Of a stretch of DNA of 64,000 nucleotides, positions 1,180 through 9,995 are shown piece by piece; within the stretch, counting starts at the first letter, position 1; every line of letters starts with the position of its first letter. The notes beneath the pieces are model-generated. The model worked only from the letters and a program-made list of their open reading frames with translations. It did not search any database and was not told where the DNA came from. This stretch comes from Nannocystis pusilla (lineage in GTDB: Bacteria > Myxococcota_A > Polyangia > Nannocystales > Nannocystaceae), in the NCBI RefSeq assembly GCF_026626665.1, contig NZ_JAPNKE010000002.1, positions 1,357,204 to 1,421,203 on the forward strand, in the 5' to 3' direction. The position numbers and the translations under genes were made by a program.

Positions 1180-1806
1180 ATGCCGCCCGCAGCCCGCATC
1201 ACTGACATGCACGTGTGCCCGGTGCCGACCCACGTCGGCGGCCCGGTGGTCGTCGGCGAGACCTCGGTGCTCATCGGCATGATGCCGGCCGCGCGCGAGG
1301 GCGACAAGCTGGTGTGCGCGACCGGCCCCGACAGCGTCGCTCGCGGCGAGCCGTCGGTGATCATCGGCAACAAGCCGGCCGCGCGCCTCGGCGACCCGAC
1401 CACCCACGGCGGCACGATCGTCGTCGGCTGTCCGACGGTGATCATCGGCTCGTCGGCTCAGGTCGAGGCGCTGCGCACCGACAAGCCCTTCTGCGAGGAG
1501 TGCGAGAAGAAGCGCAACACCACGCTGATCCTCGACCACCGCTACCACGACGACGATCCGGTGCAGGAGGCCGAGTACGAGGTCGAGCTGCGCGACGGCA
1601 CGATCCTCAAGGGCAAGCTCGACGCCAACGGCCAGGCCCGCATCGAGGGCGTGCCGCCCGAGCGGGCCCGCGTCCGCTACGGCCCCGACGTGCGCACGTG
1701 GGAGCGCAAGGACCAGACGCCGAACCCGACCTTCAAGGAAGACTTCTCCGACAGCGACGCCGACGCGCTCGTCGACGCCGTCACCGGCCAGGGACAGCAG
1801 CGATGA
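1180..1806 (+). CDS. PAAR-domain protein (T6SS spike tip) with a ~100-aa C-terminal extension
   Basis: PAAR motifs are present (ITDMHVCP, GEPSVIIG, PAARLGD). It starts 16 nt after the VgrG stop. Its stop overlaps the next start codon (ATGA). Confidence 0.85.
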   Translation: MPPAARITDMHVCPVPTHVGGPVVVGETSVLIGMMPAAREGDKLVCATGPDSVARGEPSVIIGNKPAARLGDPTTHGGTIVVGCPTVIIGSSAQVEALRTDKPFCEECEKKRNTTLILDHRYHDDDPVQEAEYEVELRDGTILKGKLDANGQARIEGVPPERARVRYGPDVRTWERKDQTPNPTFKEDFSDSDADALVDAVTGQGQQR

Positions 1807-3206
1807 GCGGCGGCGAGTACATGCGCGCCATCACCGACGTCGGTGAGTGGATCTGGGGCCTCGTCCGCGGCGGGTTCAACGAGCAGCAGTCGATCAGCCA
1901 GATCATCGTCGACGCCATCATCGGCATGATCCCCGTGGTCGGCGACGTCACCGCGGTGCGCGACCTCCTGGCGGTGGTCATCCGCCTCGCCGACCACCCC
2001 GAGCGGCGCCAGGAGACCATGCAGTGGGTCGAGCTGGCGATCTGCCTGTTCGCGCTGATCCCGGTGGCGGGCGGCGCGATCAAGGGGGTCGGCCGGCTGC
2101 TCGCGCGGGTCGGTCGCAACGCCGCCGACGCGGCGCCGGTGCTGCGCGAGGCGATCGAGCTGCTCAACCGGCTCGGCAACGGCAACGCGGTCCGCTTCAT
2201 CCGCGAGCTCGACCTGTCGCGCTACACCGCCGAGCTGCAGCGCCACTTCCGTCAGCTGGTCGGGCGCGTGACCACCACGGTCGACGCGATCCTGCGCCGC
2301 GGCCGGTGGGTGCTGCCGGACAGCATGACGGAGCGCCTGCGTCAGCTGCGAGCGGCGATGCAGGAGCTGCTGGCGCTCGGCGATCGCATGATCCCGCAGG
2401 CGGTGCGCGACCTGAATCAGTGGCTGCACACGGTCCAGCGCCACATCTACGCCGGGTCGTACCACGAGATCCCGTCGAGCCTGCGCGCCGAGACGCGGGA
2501 GCTCGAGCGCGGCCTCCTGCGCGAGCGCCGGCTGCCGCGGCCCGACGAGCTGCCGTTCCCGCCGTCGACGATCGCCAACTACCGCCACCGCGTCCCGTGG
2601 CCCGACCTGCGCCAGGGCGGCTTCCACAACCCGTCGCACAACCCGTACCGCAACATCCGCACCTTCAGCGGAAACCTGCAGGCGGTCGCGCTGCGGCACC
2701 CGCGGAAGATCTACCGCGTGATCGAGAACGCCGACGGCCGCGCGGGCGCCTTCTGGTCGCTCGAGAAGCCGGCGAGCGGCCGCGCGTGGCGCGAGGACTA
2801 CGCGGTGCTCGAGTCGTGGAACAGCGACGGCCACTACATCGAGTTCGAGATCCCGCCGAACATGACGCTCTACGTGTGGCAGGGCAAGGTGGCGAGCCAG
2901 GTCGAGACCGACGCGGCGAAGGCGACCTACGGGCAGGTGCTGAACGGCGGCGCGCAGCAGCTGCTGATCGACCTGCGCCACCCGAGCAACGCGTGGGCGA
3001 TGAGCCACGTCGAGGCGCTGCCGCTGCACCCGACCGGCTGGCGCGATCACAGGGGCGTGAACGTGCCGAACGAGCAGACCCGTGCCATCCTGCTCGGGCA
3101 CGCCGAGCGCGCCGAGCGGGTCGGCGAATTCACGGCGGTCACGCGCGTCACGGGCGCGGCGGTCCGCGGCTCGCAGGCCGAGGAGAGGCGGCAGAGGCAG
3201 CAGTGA
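1803..3206 (+). CDS. Hypothetical protein, putative T6SS cargo effector/toxin (467 aa, no domain I recognise)
   Basis: The ATG at 1803 overlaps the PAAR stop. Its position after VgrG-PAAR is typical of an effector. The N-terminal region has hydrophobic helices (IIVDAIIGMIPVVGDVTAVRDLLAVV, LAICLFALIPVAGGAIKGV). The upstream part of ORF 1215..3206 is Arg-rich off-frame noise. Confidence 0.55.
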   Translation: MSGGEYMRAITDVGEWIWGLVRGGFNEQQSISQIIVDAIIGMIPVVGDVTAVRDLLAVVIRLADHPERRQETMQWVELAICLFALIPVAGGAIKGVGRLLARVGRNAADAAPVLREAIELLNRLGNGNAVRFIRELDLSRYTAELQRHFRQLVGRVTTTVDAILRRGRWVLPDSMTERLRQLRAAMQELLALGDRMIPQAVRDLNQWLHTVQRHIYAGSYHEIPSSLRAETRELERGLLRERRLPRPDELPFPPSTIANYRHRVPWPDLRQGGFHNPSHNPYRNIRTFSGNLQAVALRHPRKIYRVIENADGRAGAFWSLEKPASGRAWREDYAVLESWNSDGHYIEFEIPPNMTLYVWQGKVASQVETDAAKATYGQVLNGGAQQLLIDLRHPSNAWAMSHVEALPLHPTGWRDHRGVNVPNEQTRAILLGHAERAERVGEFTAVTRVTGAAVRGSQAEERRQRQQ

Positions 3207-4087
3207 CGGAGCTCCAGACCATCGTCCGGCCGTTCTCGCCGGCCGAGCTCGCTATCGACGCCACCACCCTCGCGCAGGTGTTCTATCGCCTGCGCCGATA
3301 CTCGTCGCTGACCTACGTCAAGCGCTGCACCGAGCTCGTGCAGAAGTTCAGCGCCGGCTTCGACGCGTGGGCCCGCAAGTCGGGGCCCGATCACACCCAG
3401 TTCGCCCGCAAGGCGCTGCAGACGGTGTATCCGCCGCTGGCGGCGCTCGAGCAGGTGCCGGGCCTTCTGCTCGGCAACCAGAAGACGCGGGCCTACGACG
3501 CGCTGATCCAGGCCGGCTTCCTCGCCGAGCTGCTCGGCCACGGCTTCGACGGCGGCATGCGCTGGGAGAAGTTCGGCTACAACTACGGCGAGCGGCCGAG
3601 CGTCGGCCTGTTCGCGTGGGCCGAGAAGGCGGTGGTGATGGCGGCGCAGATGCAGCGCACCGCCGAGGCCAAGTGGTCGCACACGCTCATGGCCCTGCAG
3701 CGCCCGGCGCCGCCGCACGCCCACCTCCAGCCGATGCCGCCGGCCGACGGCGTCGTCGTCGACCCGGACGAGGTCGTGCCGGTGACCGGGGTGTGGGTGC
3801 CGCTCGACGTGCCGAACGGCTGCCCGAACTACCTGGTCGAGGGCGTGCCGGCGCCGAAGCTGACGGTCGAGACCCAGCGCGTCGACTCCGAGGGCTACCC
3901 CGGCGACCCCGAGAACCCGCCGATCGCCGCGCGCACCGACTACGTGTACGGCGAGGTGCCGACCCGCTGGCAGCTGGCGTGGGACGACATCCGCTACCGC
4001 GCCGGCGTCGAGATCGACGAGCCCGAGTTCCTCGACGAGGAGACCGAACTCCCGGCCTGGCCGCCGGCCCATCCGCCTTCGCCATGA
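3203..4087 (+). CDS. Hypothetical protein, putative cognate immunity protein
   Basis: The GTG at 3203 overlaps the effector stop (GTGA). Coding-like composition runs from VTELQTIVRPFSPAEL to the stop. The upstream part of ORF 1847..4087 is Arg/Gly-rich noise. Confidence 0.5.
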   Translation: MTELQTIVRPFSPAELAIDATTLAQVFYRLRRYSSLTYVKRCTELVQKFSAGFDAWARKSGPDHTQFARKALQTVYPPLAALEQVPGLLLGNQKTRAYDALIQAGFLAELLGHGFDGGMRWEKFGYNYGERPSVGLFAWAEKAVVMAAQMQRTAEAKWSHTLMALQRPAPPHAHLQPMPPADGVVVDPDEVVPVTGVWVPLDVPNGCPNYLVEGVPAPKLTVETQRVDSEGYPGDPENPPIAARTDYVYGEVPTRWQLAWDDIRYRAGVEIDEPEFLDEETELPAWPPAHPPSP

Positions 4088-4983
4088 GCGCGAGCCCTGC
4101 CAAGAGCCCTCCGTACGCCGGACCGCCCAACCTCGAGGGACCCGCGCCGCGACTGGTCGTCGAGGTGCTGTGGGGGCCCGAGCAGGGCAAGAAGGCGGTG
4201 ATCGCCGCGGGCGGGGCGGTCACGGTCGGGCGCGACGCGGCGGCCGGCCTGTGCCTGGCCCACGACGAGGCGCTGGCGCCGATCCACCTGCAGATCGAGT
4301 GGGACGGGCGGGTCGCCGCGGTGCAGGCGCTGGTGAACGAACGGACATGTCTCGACGGACAGCCGATGCGCGAGGGCAGGAGCGGCCACGGCGGCTGGGT
4401 GCGCGCCGGCGCGTCCGACCTGGCGCTGGCGATCGAGCGCCACACGCGGCCCGATCCGCCGCCGACGCCGGCGAGGGTGGCCGCGGCCGCGCCGGCGATC
4501 GCGGCCCTGCGGGCGCTGCCCGGCCGGCTGTTCGCGGTCGCCGACGCGTCGCGCGACGAGCGGGTGCGCGTGCTCCTGCGCGAGTCGCCGGCCCGCTACC
4601 GCTCGCTGTTCGACGGCTGGCAGGGCGACGCGATCGCCGAGTCTGCGCCGTACCTGGTCGAGCTCGGGCCGCCGCACCCGGAGCTGCTCGAAGATCTGGT
4701 GGTCGAGGGCTGGCACACCGACGACGCCCGACGCGACGGCGACGGCGGCTGGGCGATCTTCCTGTCGGTGCCCGACGGCCGCGAGCTCGAGGCGGTGCGC
4801 CGCCACCTGCGCAAGTTCCTCATGGTCGAGCTCGATCGCGAGAAGGTCTACTTCCGCTTCTACGACCCGCGGGTGCTGCGGGCGTTCGTGCCGACCTGCA
4901 CCGCCGCCGAGCGGCGCGAGCTCCTCGGCGACATGGGGTGGCACATCACCTGTCCCGAAGGACTGCTGAGCTTCCGCGCCTGA
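4084..4983 (+). CDS. FHA-like domain / DUF4123 (T6SS adaptor-type) protein
   Basis: The ATG overlaps the upstream stop (ATGA). The N-terminus is FHA-like (VTVGRDAAAGLCLAHDEALAPIHLQIEWDGR...NERTCLDGQPM). The C-terminus carries the DUF4123 signature (WAIFLSVPDGRELEAVRRHLRKFLMVELDREKVYFRFYDPRVLRAFVP). Confidence 0.6.
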   Translation: MSASPAKSPPYAGPPNLEGPAPRLVVEVLWGPEQGKKAVIAAGGAVTVGRDAAAGLCLAHDEALAPIHLQIEWDGRVAAVQALVNERTCLDGQPMREGRSGHGGWVRAGASDLALAIERHTRPDPPPTPARVAAAAPAIAALRALPGRLFAVADASRDERVRVLLRESPARYRSLFDGWQGDAIAESAPYLVELGPPHPELLEDLVVEGWHTDDARRDGDGGWAIFLSVPDGRELEAVRRHLRKFLMVELDREKVYFRFYDPRVLRAFVPTCTAAERRELLGDMGWHITCPEGLLSFRA

Positions 4984-5105
4984 GCGGCCCGCGCGAGGCA
5001 GTCCTGCGAAGCTGCTGAGCTTCCGCGCCCGGGCGGCGCGCTCGGCAGTCCCGAAGCGCTGCCGAGCTCCCGCGGCCGAGCGGCGCGCGCGAGGTCTCGG
5101 TCCAC
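4950..5105. repeat. Imperfect tandem direct repeats (~45-50 bp unit, about 3 copies) just downstream of the DUF4123 gene
   Basis: GACTGCTGAGCTTCCGCGCCTGAGCGGCCCGCGCGAGGCAGTCCTGCGAAG recurs with variation as GCTGCTGAGCTTCCGCGCCCGGGCGGCGCGCTCGGCAGTCCCGAAGCG and GCTGCCGAGCTCCCGCGGCCGAGCGGCGCGCGCGAGG. Confidence 0.45.
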
Positions 5106-5718
5106 GCGCGGCGGAGGACGACCGCATCCGCCGGGTCGGGCCCCCGTTCGTGGCCTGCGAGGGCCGGCCCGCGGGCGCCGGACTCGACCGGTCGCGGCGC
5201 AACTTCACGCCGCGGGGCTTCCGACTCGCGGGTCCGCCGTCCGACTGCGTGCGAGCGTGACCCGCCGCGCACCTGCCGGAGTGACGCGGCCGGGCCCCGG
5301 CGGCCCCGTTTGCGCCGGGCCGAGCCACCCGGCCGGAGGCCCCGGGCTGCGCTCGCGCGACCCGGCGCTACGCTTGCCGCTGCGTGCCCGACCCGCGGCC
5401 GACAGCCGAGCGCGTGTTCTCCTGCCCGCCGGAGCCCCCCTTCGCGGGCCGGCCGCGGCCCCGCGGCGCTCGCACCGACGTGGCGCTCGGGACAGGTCGA
5501 GGGGCGAGGCGGGCCGGCGGAGCGCAGGCCGGGGCGGGCGACGCGGACCTGCGCGAAGGGACAGGTCGACGAGACCGGCGCGACCGCGACAGGAGCGATC
5601 TGTCCAGAGAGACATCTGTTCGCCGGCCGGTCCGCGGGCCCACGCCCGACGCGGCGAGCGACATGACCGATCGGACAGGCCTTCATCCGACCGCGGTCGC
5701 GCGCGAGGAGGCCGGGCC

Positions 5719-6699
5719 ATGAAGCTGCGGACGCGGGTGGCGGCGGCGCTGTTCGTGGTCGCGGCGCCGGTCCTGATAGGGGTGAGCGCGCTGCCGGAGC
5801 CGCTGCTCGGACGCACCGGCGCGCTGGCGCTCGGCTTCGGCCTCGGGATCTCGGCGGCGCTCGCGGTCGCCTGGCCGCTGCTCGGACGGATCCGCCAGCT
5901 CGCCGCGGCCGCCCGCGACGCCGCCGAGAGCGGCCATCGCCGCGAGATCGAGGTCGGCGGCGACGACGAGGTGGCCGAGCTGGCCCACAGCTTCAACGCG
6001 GCCGGCCGGGCCGTGCGCGACCACCTGGCCCGCGGCGAGCGGCGCAACGCGGCCCTGCGCGACGTCGTCGTCGACGCCACCCACGACGTCATGCTGCCGC
6101 TGACGGCCCTGCACGGCCACCTCGGCGACCTCGGCCCGGGCGCGGCGATCGCCGAGGTCCACCACATCGCCGGGCTGCTGCGCAACCTCGCGGCCGCGGC
6201 CGCGCTGGCGACCGAGGTCGCGCCGGCGCGGGCGGCGATCGACCTCAACGCGGTCCTGCTGCGCGTGGTGGTCCGCGCGACCGCGCCGGCGCGCAAGGCG
6301 GGGGTCGAGCTGGTGTCGGCGGTGCCCGAGGCGACGGTGTGGATCGACGGCGACGCCTTGCTCGTCGAGCAGGCGATCGTCAACGTGATCGACAACGCGG
6401 TCGCCTACAACTACCGCGGCGGCCACGTGGCCGCGGTGCTGGTCCGCCGCGGCCACGACGGCTTCGCCCTGCGCGTCGAGGACGACGGCCCGGGGGTGAG
6501 GCCCGACGAGCTGCCGCGCCTGACCGAACGCTACTTCCGCGGCGCCCACGGCCAGCAGGTCCGACCCGGCGGGCGCGGGCTCGGCCTCCACGTCGTCGCC
6601 CGCGTGGCCGAGGCCCACGGCTTCTCGCTCGAGCTGGCCCGCGGCCCCTACGGCGGGCTGTGCGTCGAGCTGCGCGGCCGCCGGCGCGCGACCCGGTGA
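5719..6699 (+). CDS. Sensor histidine kinase (two N-terminal TM helices, HAMP, HisKA, HATPase_c)
   Basis: MKLRTRVAAALFVVAAPVLIG TM; H-box region (DATHDVMLPLTAL); N/G boxes (IVNVIDNAVAYN, DDGPGV, GGRGLGLHVV). No response regulator is adjacent. Confidence 0.8.
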   Translation: MKLRTRVAAALFVVAAPVLIGVSALPEPLLGRTGALALGFGLGISAALAVAWPLLGRIRQLAAAARDAAESGHRREIEVGGDDEVAELAHSFNAAGRAVRDHLARGERRNAALRDVVVDATHDVMLPLTALHGHLGDLGPGAAIAEVHHIAGLLRNLAAAAALATEVAPARAAIDLNAVLLRVVVRATAPARKAGVELVSAVPEATVWIDGDALLVEQAIVNVIDNAVAYNYRGGHVAAVLVRRGHDGFALRVEDDGPGVRPDELPRLTERYFRGAHGQQVRPGGRGLGLHVVARVAEAHGFSLELARGPYGGLCVELRGRRRATR

Positions 6700-8362: not shown

Positions 8363-9995
8363 ATGGTCGCGGTGGTGCTCGTCAACCTCGACGCGATCGA
8401 CTGGAAGTCCCTGCGCCACGCCTACGGAGAGGCGAGCGACGTGCCGAAGCTGATCCGCGCGCTCGTCAGCGATCACCCCGGCAAGCGGGAGGGCGCGCTC
8501 GACGCGTTGTTCTCGACGATCTGGCACCAGGGCACGGTGTACTCGGCGAGCCCCGCCGCGGTGCCGTTCCTGGTCGAGCTGCTCGAGGCCGACCAGCAGG
8601 AGGATCTGCCGGCGATCCTCGAGCTGCTGGCGCACCTCGCCACCGGCACGCCCGACGAGGACGCCGAGGCGCTGCCCAACGCCGCCACCGCCGCGCGCGA
8701 GGCCGTGTCGAAGGGGATCTCCGTCTACGCGCGCCGCCTCGGCCACCCCGAGCCGGCGGTCCGCGTGGCCGCGGCGTACTTGCTCGGGCTGTTCGCGGTC
8801 GAGGCGGCCCGCGCCCCGCTCGCCGCGGCCGTCGAGGACGACTCCGAGCCGGCGGTCCGCGCCGTGGCAGCGTTCGCGCTCGGCTGCATCGCCGACCCGG
8901 CCCGCGCCGACGCGCTGCGCGAGCGGCTGGTCGACATCAGCGAGCACCCCGCGGTGCGCCTCTACGCCGGCCTCGGCCTGTCGCGCGGCGGCGCCCCTGG
9001 AAGGCCCGCAGTTCGCCGCGCTCGCCGAGTTGGTCGAAGACGTCGATCTGTTCGGCCAGCTCGACGAGCTCCACGACAACGCCGCGCGCATGAGCTACGG
9101 CCCGCTCGCCGACGGCCTCCTGCGCCTGCCCGCGGCGGCGCGCCTGCGCCTGGCCCCCGCGCTCGGGCGTGCCCTCGAGGCGGTCCGCGGCCGCGACGCG
9201 CTCGGCCTGGCCACCGCGCTGCTCGGGCTCACCTTCGCCGACGCGAGCGTGCCCGCGGGGGCCGGCGCGGAGGTCCTCGGCGAGGTCCAGCGCCAGGTGC
9301 TGGCGAGCCTCGTGCGCGCGCCGGCGGCCTGGCGCTACGCCAACATCGGCACCGCGCTGGCCGACATCGGCCTCGCGCCGGAGCTGACCGAGCGCGCCCC
9401 GCTGGCCGAGTGGCTCGGCGTCGACGCCGGCGAGCTGGCCGAGGACGACGAGGACGACGAGGGCGACGAGGCCGGCGAGGGCGACGAGGACGACGAGGAC
9501 GGCGGCGTCGACGTCGAGGCGCCCGAGCCCGACCTCGGTGAGCTCGACCGGATCGGCCGCTTCGTCGCCTGTCTCGACGGCCAGGACTGGCGCGAGGCCC
9601 GGCAGTGGTTCGCCTTCTATCAGCAGATGCGCGGAGTCGCCCGCGTCGAGCCGCCGGCGATCGGCCGCTACTTCGGCGCCCACGCCAACCTCGAGGCCGG
9701 CTACTGGCTGTACGACCGCGAGCTGTCGCGCTCCCTCGGCACCTGCGTCCCGCTCGAGCACATCCGCCTGGCCGTCGGGCGCAAGGACTCCGACGATCAG
9801 GTGGCCCTGCGGATCCGCGTCGACGACGGCTGCCTCGACGCCGTCCTCGCCGCGATCGTCCGCCACCAGGACCGCGTCACCCCGACCGACTTCACCGCCC
9901 TGGCGATCGACCTCATCGGCGCCGCCCCCGAGGTGTTGCTGGAGACCGGCCGAGCCCAGCGCGCCCGCCTCGGTCGCGCTGCCGGCAGCGCCTGA
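8363..9995 (+). CDS. HEAT-repeat (PBS-lyase-like) protein with an acidic linker; apparent -1 frameshift near 8990-9000
   Basis: HEAT-like repeats run to ...EHPAVRLYAGLGLSRGG in the frame of ORF 8363..9541. Sensible sequence then continues only in the frame of ORF 9030..9995 (APLEGPQFAALAELVEDVDLFGQLDEL...). The junction lies in a GCCCCTGG homopolymer run. Confidence 0.5.

Follow-up and report, generated by a model that had tools for sequence, protein, structure and literature searches.

An FHA-DUF4123 protein ending a Nannocystis pusilla T6SS cassette is probably the adaptor of a deleted Tle1-like phospholipase module

A T6SS cassette of Nannocystis pusilla ends in a gene, here called FD, whose product combines an N-terminal FHA-fold domain with a DUF4123 domain. 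We propose that FD is an FHA-bearing adaptor of the Tap/Tec/Tla type that probably belonged to a second cargo module, made up of a small gene (f2) and a gene for a Tle1-like phospholipase, and that FD is now the last gene of its cassette because this module was deleted in the lineage of the window, the whole 64,000-nucleotide stretch of DNA analysed here. Two observations point to such a lost module: sister cassettes in which FD is followed by f2 and Tle1, and a scar 3' of FD in the window that still contains the 3' end of the Tle1 gene.

Results

The window opens inside vgrG, the start of which precedes it. The 3' part of this gene (1-1164, +) matches TIGR03361 (4.4e-95), Gp5_trimer_C (1.7e-28) and Phage_base_V (1.6e-15). 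It is followed by genes for a 208-aa PAAR protein with a C-terminal extension of ~110 aa (1180-1806, +; PF05488, 2.5e-22), a putative T6SS effector of 467 aa (EFF; 1803-3206, +), a fused Imm71/Imm72-type immunity protein (IMM; 3203-4087, +) and FD (4084-4983, +), and 4-bp overlaps link the genes from PAAR through FD. The place that the sequence-only reading gave to FD, at the cassette end behind the putative effector, is upheld by this order. A HAMP/HATPase histidine kinase gene (5719-6699, +) flanks the cassette on the outside, and this 3' neighbour is conserved in every Nannocystis locus with a readable flank (L001, L010, L011 and L012).

EFF matches no Pfam family above cutoff. Its N-terminal half is predicted to be helical and hydrophobic and its C-terminal domain to be alpha/beta; the AF2 model of the latter bears a weak resemblance to two NADase toxins, Tne2 (6b12, E=6.6e-4, TMt 0.56) and Tse6. 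The EFF family is widespread and includes one fusion to Hcp, and in the window clade the PAAR gene precedes EFF in every case. IMM matches Imm72 above cutoff (4.6e-9) and Imm71 with 3.2e-5, and its WDDIRY agrees with the Imm72 signature WxDxRY (PMC3482391).

FD is a genuine gene of 299 aa. The ATG at 4084 overlaps the preceding stop codon (ATGA), the TGA stop occupies 4981-4983, and the GC3 of 0.94 is typical for coding sequence in a window of 72% GC. Moreover, the reading frame is unbroken in all six Nannocystis copies. Decay of FD was tested by dN/dS and is not indicated: the values for FD against L009-L012 (0.32-0.63) are indistinguishable from those for PAAR, EFF and IMM (0.14-0.78), although dS is compressed at a GC3 of ~0.97, so that these ratios are comparable between neighbouring genes only and weakly informative.

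Residues 149-278 of FD (4528-4917, +) match the DUF4123 family PF13503 with E=8e-25 (87.8 bits against a Pfam cutoff of 25.8), which confirms an assignment made earlier from the RFYDPRVL signature. Of the DUF4123 motif set YLLLD / SPYxxLVxL / HLRxLLxV / LFRFYDPxVL described by Unterweger in 2015 (PMC4557670), the last appears as YFRFYDPRVL at residues 256-265, and the remaining ones are recognisable in LFAVAD, APYLVEL and HLRKFLMV. The best NCBIfam match is the Tle1 chaperone Tla1 (7.7e-7), which stays below cutoff with 29 bits versus an equivalog cutoff of 200 bits. A PDB sequence search for a DUF4123 structure found none. In P0068, a protein of two domains, DUF4123 is N-terminal and shares 50% identity with the FD domain; the C-terminus of FD lies ~20 residues past DUF4123, so FD does not have the architecture of DUF4123 plus an effector-specific C-terminal domain. 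Judged by the PF13503 match, the motifs and a vgrG/PAAR cassette context that is common to 80 related FD loci, FD belongs to the DUF4123 T6SS adaptors (Tap/Tec/Tla).

The N-terminal module had been described as FHA-like over residues ~20-110, and both profile searches and the AF2 model indicate that residues ~23-117 (4150-4434, +) have an FHA fold. For this module, the only Pfam match of FD alone is a sub-threshold one to Yop-YscD_cpl, which Pfam places in the FHA clan (25.7 bits against a cutoff of 33.2; E=1.4e-5), and the single sequence matches FhaA (3po8) with E=1.2e-3. A profile built from 41 full-length homologues, by comparison with FHA structures, matches FhaA (3po8) with 1.6e-17, GarA with 3e-11 and Rad53 with 2e-5, and many FD homologues carry PF00498. 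The AF2 model (pLDDT 89.4, pTM 0.85) superposes on the FHA domains of FhaA, GarA, OdhI, YscD and PscD; the closest structure is 3po8, with a target-normalised TM-score of 0.86 and an rmsd of 2.3 A; 3poa/3oun reach 0.86 and 1.8 A, and the Foldseek match list consists mostly of FHA structures. Fha1/TagH is likewise a T6SS accessory protein with an FHA domain, but it combines FHA with T6SS_FHA_C and has no DUF4123. An origin of the FD domain from the TagH FHA was ruled out, since the TagH match scores below those to FhaA or GarA (28 bits versus 73 bits to FhaA).

The phosphothreonine (pThr) pocket of this domain has changed at most positions. FD keeps one of five canonical pThr/peptide contacts, the Arg of the GR motif (R53), together with the structural His; the SxxH Ser is Ala65, the following Ser is Pro66, and of the Thr and Asn of (T)NGT, the Asn is Glu and the Thr is lost or Asn. 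Even the remaining Arg varies: its equivalent is Ser in P0001, an orthologue 96% identical to FD, and among P0001 to P0027 it is replaced by Ser, Thr or Ala in 16 members, P0001 included. The SxxH Ser is Ala throughout the same set, save P0023 (Pro). From these substitutions the pocket is judged degenerate across the whole Nannocystis-like clade. Across the FD family (n=72), the GR Arg is present in 53 members, the SxxH Ser in 28 and the NGT Asn in five, and more distant members keep GR and SxxH; the Sorangium protein P0055 is a canonical member.

By analogy with the T3SS proteins YscD/PscD (4a0e, 4d9v, 6uid), the FHA domain of FD most likely binds a protein partner independently of phosphorylation. 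These proteins share with FD an FHA beta-sandwich within a part of a secretion apparatus, and their FHA domains likewise lack the canonical pThr residues. However, YscD belongs to another secretion system and has another architecture, being an inner-membrane ring protein, and by sequence the FD domain is nearer to FhaA/GarA-type domains than to YscD/PscD.

The sequence-only reading had also described the window as rich in Ser/Thr kinases and suggested that Thr phosphorylation recruits or regulates FD. The first claim failed, as the 64 kb contain only two Hanks catalytic loops (24313, -, and 37049, +), 19-33 kb from FD and in genes that both look frameshifted. A third apparent frameshift lies at 8982-8998; all three may mark true pseudogenes or come from indels in the assembly. 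No kinase or phosphatase was found within the FD cassette. Around 80 FD loci, a strict catalytic-loop plus DFG motif, the stringency of which makes the count a lower bound, identified 8 kinase loops in 1.16 Mb, with a loop at most 8 kb away in 7 of the 80; this is no denser than in the window itself and indicates that kinase enrichment is absent near FD loci. With a degenerate pocket, a variable Arg and no kinase linkage, the second claim is not supported either.

The FHA-DUF4123 fusion recurs: at least 80 loci were recovered, in Myxococcota, Acidobacteriota and Planctomycetota. The fusion is already known from two papers, of 2015 and 2020. The 2015 paper lists FHA among the domains added to DUF4123 proteins and notes that the genes of these proteins occur 3' of vgrG or effector genes (PMC4557670), and FHA is the commonest such extra domain, at 1.1% (PMC7714669); the description of DUF4123 proteins as normally stand-alone was therefore overstated. 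Gene context was surveyed for 67 full-length FD genes, with genes called by a home-made start-trimming GC3 caller that is unreliable for surveyed loci below about 60% GC. In this set a short PAAR gene lies 5' of FD in 30 of the 66 loci having an upstream gene, and the 3' position is taken by f2 in 24 loci, another same-strand gene in 12 and vgrG in 5, with FD terminal in 24. FD is the last gene of the operon in about a third of the copies in other genomes.

The complete order vgrG-PAAR-EFF-Imm72-FD-f2-Tle1 is found in four relatives (L012 of N. radixulma, L093/94, L095 and L096/97). In these sister cassettes f2 is a gene of ~135 aa directly 3' of FD, and in one group of loci the gene after f2 encodes a T6SS Tle1-like phospholipase (PF09994, E=1e-18 to 6e-28). 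The f2 product is a homologue of the C-terminal region (residues ~185-300) of P0068, P0075, P0081 and P0118 (E=8.5e-38 to 1e-18), two-domain proteins whose DUF4123 domain occupies residues ~25-168; this homology rests on a profile search, the pairwise BLASTP match of f2 to P0068 being weak (E=0.004).

In the window, FD is followed by a non-coding scar of 735 bp (4984-5718) that extends to the histidine kinase gene. The flanks of the scar match N. radixulma L012, with window 4700-4976 corresponding to L012 8587-8863 and window 5691-5999 to the start of the L012 histidine kinase gene, and ~2 kb are absent between them (about L012 8870-10919, where f2 and the larger part of the Tle1-like gene lie). 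Within the scar, window 5177-5465 corresponds to L012 10919-11215 (a 300-nt blastn match, 76%, E=7e-52), which spans the last ~85 bp of Tle1 and intergenic DNA. This match includes a fossil of the phospholipase C-terminus at 5192-5245 (+; SRRNFTPRGFRLAGPPSD), which aligns by tblastn with residues 388-405 of L012 Tle1 (67% identity, E=3e-5) and fits the clade motif ARRKFTPRRFRLKG.PP. Longer fossils persist in the scars of L010 (Tle1 residues 322-403, E=2.6e-8) and L001 (residues 366-405, E=1.8e-9). A weak match at 5111-5137 (+; AEDDRIRRV; tblastn E=0.04; blastn 41 nt, 83%, E=4e-4), which has a counterpart in the scars of L001 and L009, is no more than suggestive of an origin from the 5' end of f2. 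No f2 or Tle1 was found elsewhere in the 64-kb window by HMM search of the six-frame translation, and no Rfam family, promoter-like or terminator-like site was found in the scar. A 47-bp tandem repeat of 2.9 copies (4952-5089) has the 3' end of FD as its first copy; the L010 and L001 scars contain other lineage-specific repeats, and the intact L012 has no repeats of such class.

Discussion

Our data favor a cassette in which one vgrG would have served two cargo modules, PAAR-EFF-IMM and FD-f2-Tle1-like phospholipase. In the FD subfamily, the usual effector-specific C-terminal domain would be encoded separately, as f2. [quoted passage not shown] A deletion of about 2 kb would then have removed f2 and the phospholipase gene from the window lineage. 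Having been made terminal in this way, FD appears to follow its effector; the gene order on which the sequence-only reading relied is correct, but its interpretation as an adaptor encoded after its own effector is probably not, as two tandem modules and a deletion fit best. Present-day FD may be idle, may serve cargo encoded elsewhere (in trans) or may help to load EFF. Its reading frame has stayed unbroken across a dS of ~0.2 after the deletion, which argues that FD retains some activity.

Two groups of known adaptors resemble FD. Tla1 (PA3293) of Pseudomonas aeruginosa is a DUF4123 protein of a vgrG island. It binds the C-terminus of VgrG4a through its N-terminal DUF4123 domain and, through a helical C-terminal domain, Tle1 (PMC13133936), a cargo that parallels the phospholipase of the sister cassettes. 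Tla1 unites these two domains in one polypeptide and has no FHA domain, whereas in FD the FHA domain is N-terminal and DUF4123 C-terminal, with the C-terminal domain split off as f2 and deleted with the lipase. The chimeric adaptors Tap-1, VasW and TecT share with FD the four DUF4123 motifs and a gene position after vgrG, and their effector-specific C-terminal segment has been proposed to co-segregate with the effector (PMC4557670), which parallels the loss of f2 together with Tle1; unlike in these proteins, the cargo-specific segment of FD is split off.

It is possible, though unlikely, that FD is or became the adaptor for EFF, bridging EFF or PAAR-EFF to VgrG; the FHA domain would then bind the cargo, as a substitute for the C-terminal domain that FD lacks. 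The 4-bp overlaps that join PAAR-EFF-IMM-FD are consistent with this, the linkage is kept in loci whose FD is down to 53% identical to that of the window, and FD has remained unbroken after the loss of f2-Tle1. The position of FD behind a PAAR-toxin/immunity pair recurs in other genomes (L002, L041, L054/55 and L029), and FD is terminal in several. Additionally, in L044 the gene that immediately follows a PAAR-Ntox46 toxin encodes a fusion of DUF4123 with a Tsi6 immunity domain, and L093 encodes a Tsi6-DUF4123 protein next to a PAAR-Ntox46 gene, suggesting that adaptors could also act on an upstream PAAR-linked toxin. However, EFF appears to get by elsewhere without an adjoining DUF4123 gene: in Enterobacter T6SS clusters the EFF homologue lies directly 3' of vgrG and is followed by Imm71/72 with no DUF4123, and L092 likewise has none. 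Moreover, f2-Tle1 follows FD in all non-deleted relatives with enough downstream sequence, among named models FD comes closest to a Tle1 chaperone, and the DUF4123-associated effectors identified in a published survey include no PAAR-fused ones (PMC7714669).

Quite unlikely is a variant in which the pocket has diverged in function. The FD proteins that keep GR and SxxH (in Sorangium, Polyangium, Acidobacteriota and Planctomycetota) would dock on the spike in a pThr-dependent manner, with cargo loading gated by Ser/Thr kinases, and the Nannocystis FHA domain would have become a phospho-independent cargo binder that lets FD work on EFF without f2.

A general accessory role for FD at the VgrG-PAAR spike, for example in assembly or stabilisation and tied to no neighbouring cargo, is considered very unlikely. 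The trio of vgrG, short PAAR and FD is indeed the commonest conserved core, and some loci have it with no same-strand cargo gene, such as L071 of Sorangium cellulosum So ce56. However, every characterised DUF4123 protein is an effector-specific adaptor (PMC4557670, PMC13133936). The frequency of f2 after FD (24/67 loci) also speaks against a general role, as does the homology of f2 with the second domain of two-domain DUF4123 proteins, the C-terminal part that is effector-specific in Tap-1 and Tla1. Furthermore, the several FD paralogues of a single genome adjoin different cargos.

Finally, it is highly improbable that the FHA module binds phosphothreonine and that signalling by Hanks-type kinases thereby recruits or gates the loading of effectors: although its homology to FHA domains is genuine, distant members retain GR and SxxH, and T6SS is controlled by threonine phosphorylation through another FHA protein, Fha1/TagH (the TagH gene of the related cluster L093 is separate from FD), this idea is opposed by the loss of four contacts and the inconstant fifth, the rarity of the NGT Asn, the sparse and distant kinase genes, and a domain that is no copy of the TagH FHA.

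The oddities of this locus come down to an architecture already on record, an FHA pocket that has degenerated and a deletion, and are of little consequence for the locus itself. With PAAR-linked and adaptor-linked modules behind one vgrG, the cargo of an adaptor is not identifiable from gene order alone. The searchable literature yielded no experimentally characterised FHA-bearing DUF4123 adaptor; across Myxococcota, Acidobacteriota and Planctomycetota, these proteins make up a large subfamily that awaits characterisation, and its recognition may aid T6SS annotation. In many of these adaptors the effector-specific C-terminal domain is encoded apart, by the small gene f2, which could mark the cargo genes.

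FD encodes an FHA-DUF4123 adaptor of a known architecture

The window starts inside vgrG (to 1164, +; TIGR03361, 4e-95), which heads a plus-strand cassette of PAAR (1180-1806; Pfam/NCBIfam, 2.5e-22), the putative effector gene EFF (1803-3206, 467 aa), the Imm71/Imm72-type immunity gene IMM (3203-4087, 294 aa; Imm72 at 4.6e-9, above cutoff) and the gene of interest, FD (4084-4983), with 4-bp overlaps between successive genes from PAAR through FD. FD carries a DUF4123 domain at residues 149-278 (8e-25) and the RFYDPRVL signature, and residues 27-96 gave a sub-threshold Pfam match to Yop-YscD_cpl of the FHA clan (1.4e-5). The sequence-only reading had seen an FHA-like module fused to a T6SS adaptor domain behind an effector gene; that observation, both domain calls and the adaptor role hold, while the novelty, the meaning given to gene order and the phospho-regulation that it proposed do not.

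Both homology and fold identify the N-terminal module as an FHA domain. Among 5.8 billion proteins searched, 136 were related to FD, the nearest being Nannocystis proteins (N. pusilla at 96% identity), and many full-length relatives carry PF00498 (FHA) and PF13503 together. Against solved FHA domains, the single FD sequence reached only 1.2e-3 with FhaA; a profile of 41 full-length relatives matched FhaA/Rv0020c (1.6e-17), GarA (3e-11), Rad53 (2e-5) and YscD (7e-3), so the profile searches supported the FHA fold. Moreover, the confident AF2 model (pLDDT 89.4, pTM 0.85) has beta strands from residues 24 to 117, and in Foldseek this domain superposes on FhaA, CT664, GarA, OdhI, MEK1, YscD and PscD, the best match being 3po8 (target-normalised TM 0.86, rmsd 2.3 A; 3poa/3oun, TM 0.86, 1.8 A). 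An origin of the domain as a copy of the T6SS TagH FHA domain was rejected.

The fusion itself is not new. Fha, ZapA or PWWP domains often occur in DUF4123 proteins, which are encoded downstream of either vgrG or a putative effector gene (Unterweger et al. 2015, PMC4557670), and FHA is their commonest additional domain, at 1.1% (Liu et al. 2020, PMC7714669). When one genome of each species was scanned, FD had 507 relatives; in the best 80, all matches begin at about residue 20 and include the FHA part. These 80 come from Acidobacteriota, Planctomycetota and eight Myxococcota genera (Nannocystis, Sorangium, Polyangium, Cystobacter, Hyalangium, Chondromyces, Minicystis and Archangium). FD is a further member of a known but uncharacterised architecture, and the literature search brought up no study of an FHA-containing DUF4123 member.

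The phosphothreonine pocket is degenerate and nothing links FD to a kinase

In an alignment with FhaA and GarA, FD retains the structural histidine and the arginine of the GR motif (R53). Ala65 stands in place of the SxxH serine, with Pro66 after it, and (T)NGT has become (N)ERT, with Asn replaced by Glu and Thr lost or replaced by Asn. Of the 72 full-length relatives compared, 53 have the Arg, 28 the Ser and five the NGT Asn. Throughout the Nannocystis-like clade (P0001-P0027) the SxxH serine is Ala, save for Pro in P0023, and 16 members have Ser, Thr or Ala for the GR arginine, including P0001, with 96% identity to FD. An arginine needed for phosphothreonine binding would not differ between orthologues this close. 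The FHA and DUF4123 domains are similarly conserved (dN/dS 0.23-0.59 versus 0.22-0.49). Judged from these residues, FD is probably not a phosphothreonine reader, and its FHA domain is probably still a binding module, but not a canonical phosphothreonine one.

The suggested regulation by Hanks-type kinases fares no better, and nothing links FD to any kinase. Hanks catalytic loops occur twice in the 64-kb window, 19 kb away from FD at 24313 (-) and 33 kb away at 37049 (+), and in both genes the DFG/activation segment lies in a different frame from the catalytic loop. By a strict motif count, 80 related loci held 8 kinase loops in 1.16 Mb, or 0.44 per 64 kb versus two in the window. A HEAT-repeat gene (8363-9995) is also apparently frameshifted, at ~8982-8998: it is 98% identical to a 540-aa N. 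pusilla protein but split over two frames. These three genes are either pseudogenes or assembly indel errors.

The terminal position of FD points to loss of f2 and Tle1

Among the surveyed loci, the vgrG-PAAR-EFF-IMM-FD layout is restricted to a Nannocystis-like clade. In every clade relative outside the deleted lineage with enough downstream sequence, FD is followed by f2, a gene of ~135 aa, and a Tle1-like phospholipase gene: N. radixulma (L012), L096/97, L095 (two Tle1 copies) and L093/94, where the cassette lies inside the main T6SS cluster and tssE-F-G-tagH follow. Both genes are missing from the window, N. pusilla (L001), RBIL2 (L009), N. punicea (L010) and N. bainbridge (L011).

Nucleotide alignment located the break. 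The FD 3' end (window 4700-4976) matches L012 8587-8863 at 88%, the next ~2 kb of L012 are absent, and homology resumes at window 5177-5465 (L012 10919-11215; 76%, E=7e-52), starting ~85 bp ahead of the Tle1 stop codon and followed by a histidine kinase start. At 5192-5245 the peptide SRRNFTPRGFRLAGPPSD corresponds to the conserved C-terminal end of Tle1, ARRKFTPRRFRLKG.PP; longer Tle1 fossils occur in the L010 (E=2.6e-8) and L001 (1.8e-9) scars, and for f2 there is a weak candidate fossil at 5111-5137. The missing ~2 kb and the Tle1 fossil mark the 735-bp gap 4984-5718 as a putative deletion scar, and FD would be last because f2 and Tle1 were deleted, which removes the significance ascribed to its place behind the effector gene.

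The scars are non-coding and ~80% GC, and each lineage has a different tandem repeat, with periods of 47 to 103 bp (L010, 8961-9922; L001, 11385-11656). In the window a 47-bp unit is repeated 2.9 times (4952-5089), its first copy being the last ~30 bp of FD; intact L012 has no tandem repeat of this class. The window cassette is an orphan island adjoining the histidine kinase, whereas in the metagenomic relative L093 (12893-17325) the whole vgrG-PAAR-EFF-Imm72-FD-f2-Tle1 cassette forms part of the main T6SS cluster, directly ahead of tssE-tssF-tssG and a TagH-type gene that combines FHA with T6SS_FHA_C.

FD and f2 resemble a classical adaptor split in two

Genes in all loci were called with a GC3-based caller, and families were labelled with HMMs built for this analysis. 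The commonest layout is vgrG, a short PAAR gene, FD, f2 and a gene of 450-600 aa, which in one group is the Tle1-like phospholipase (PF09994, 1e-18 to 6e-28), consistent with the best NCBIfam hit of FD, the Tle1 chaperone Tla1. The surveyed loci contain 31 f2 members; f2 adjoins FD in 24 of 67 loci, for example directly downstream at L012 8877-9281, L022 8927-9340 and L048 8855-9277.

Although f2 falls outside every Pfam family, an f2 HMM aligns with residues ~185-300 of four DUF4123 proteins that have two domains (P0068, P0075, P0081 and P0118; 8.5e-38 to 1e-18), whose DUF4123 domain (residues ~25-168) is 50% identical to that of FD. This homology suggests that FD and f2 are a classical adaptor split into two genes and extended at its N-terminus by an FHA domain. 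In Tla1 (PMC13133936) and Tap-1 (PMC4557670), the DUF4123 part touches the C-terminal end of VgrG, and effector specificity lies in the C-terminal part; there both parts belong to one protein, unlike in FD-f2.

FD probably still has a role

All six Nannocystis copies of FD are intact, and by dN/dS the gene evolves as the adjacent genes do, which argues that it probably still has a role. That this role is to act on the upstream PAAR-EFF-IMM module seems unlikely. In its favour are this retention and the recurrence of operon-terminal FD genes (about one third of FD genes elsewhere), several of them after PAAR-toxin/immunity pairs (L002, L041, L054/55 and L029). Additionally, paralogous Nannocystis-type loci encode a fusion of DUF4123 with the Tsi6 immunity domain beside a PAAR-Ntox46 toxin, directly after the Tse6-like toxin gene in N. 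bainbridge (L044 7704-8822) and beside it in L093 (2693-3838, -). EFF and IMM, for their part, are a separate PAAR-linked module. The EFF family is widespread and unannotated (Myxococcota, Fibrobacteria, Burkholderia, Yersinia, Enterobacter; it includes one Hcp fusion), and a fused Imm71/Imm72 immunity gene is always next downstream (window; L089-L091, 7001-9672). In Enterobacter, EFF lies immediately 3' of vgrG in a T6SS cluster, followed by the Imm71/Imm72 gene; neither this cluster nor L092 has a DUF4123 gene beside EFF.

The AF2 model of EFF is moderate (pLDDT 77.5, pTM 0.43), with a helical, hydrophobic N-terminal half that weakly matches DUF4112 and a well-predicted C-terminal domain, whose modelled fold has a weak similarity to two NADase toxins, Tne2 (E=6.6e-4, TMt 0.56) and Tse6. 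Imm71/72 were paired with Ntox48 by Zhang et al. 2012; for EFF, both the NADase and the Ntox48 assignment are candidates only.

Minicystis (L041) has a PAAR-toxin gene, then Tsi6, then FHA-DUF4123. Judged from layout, RBIL2 L060 (a 340-aa PAAR protein, then a 371-aa DUF4123 protein) is probably of the Tsi6-DUF4123 kind. Several FD loci also have a 780-850-aa gene convergent with or upstream of the cassette: those at L071 8853-11204 (-) and L022 2990-5542 share similar N-terminal sequence, that at L041 9052-11601 (-) was likened by size and position, and that at L004 15372-17843 (-) is annotated DUF2169, another T6SS adaptor family.
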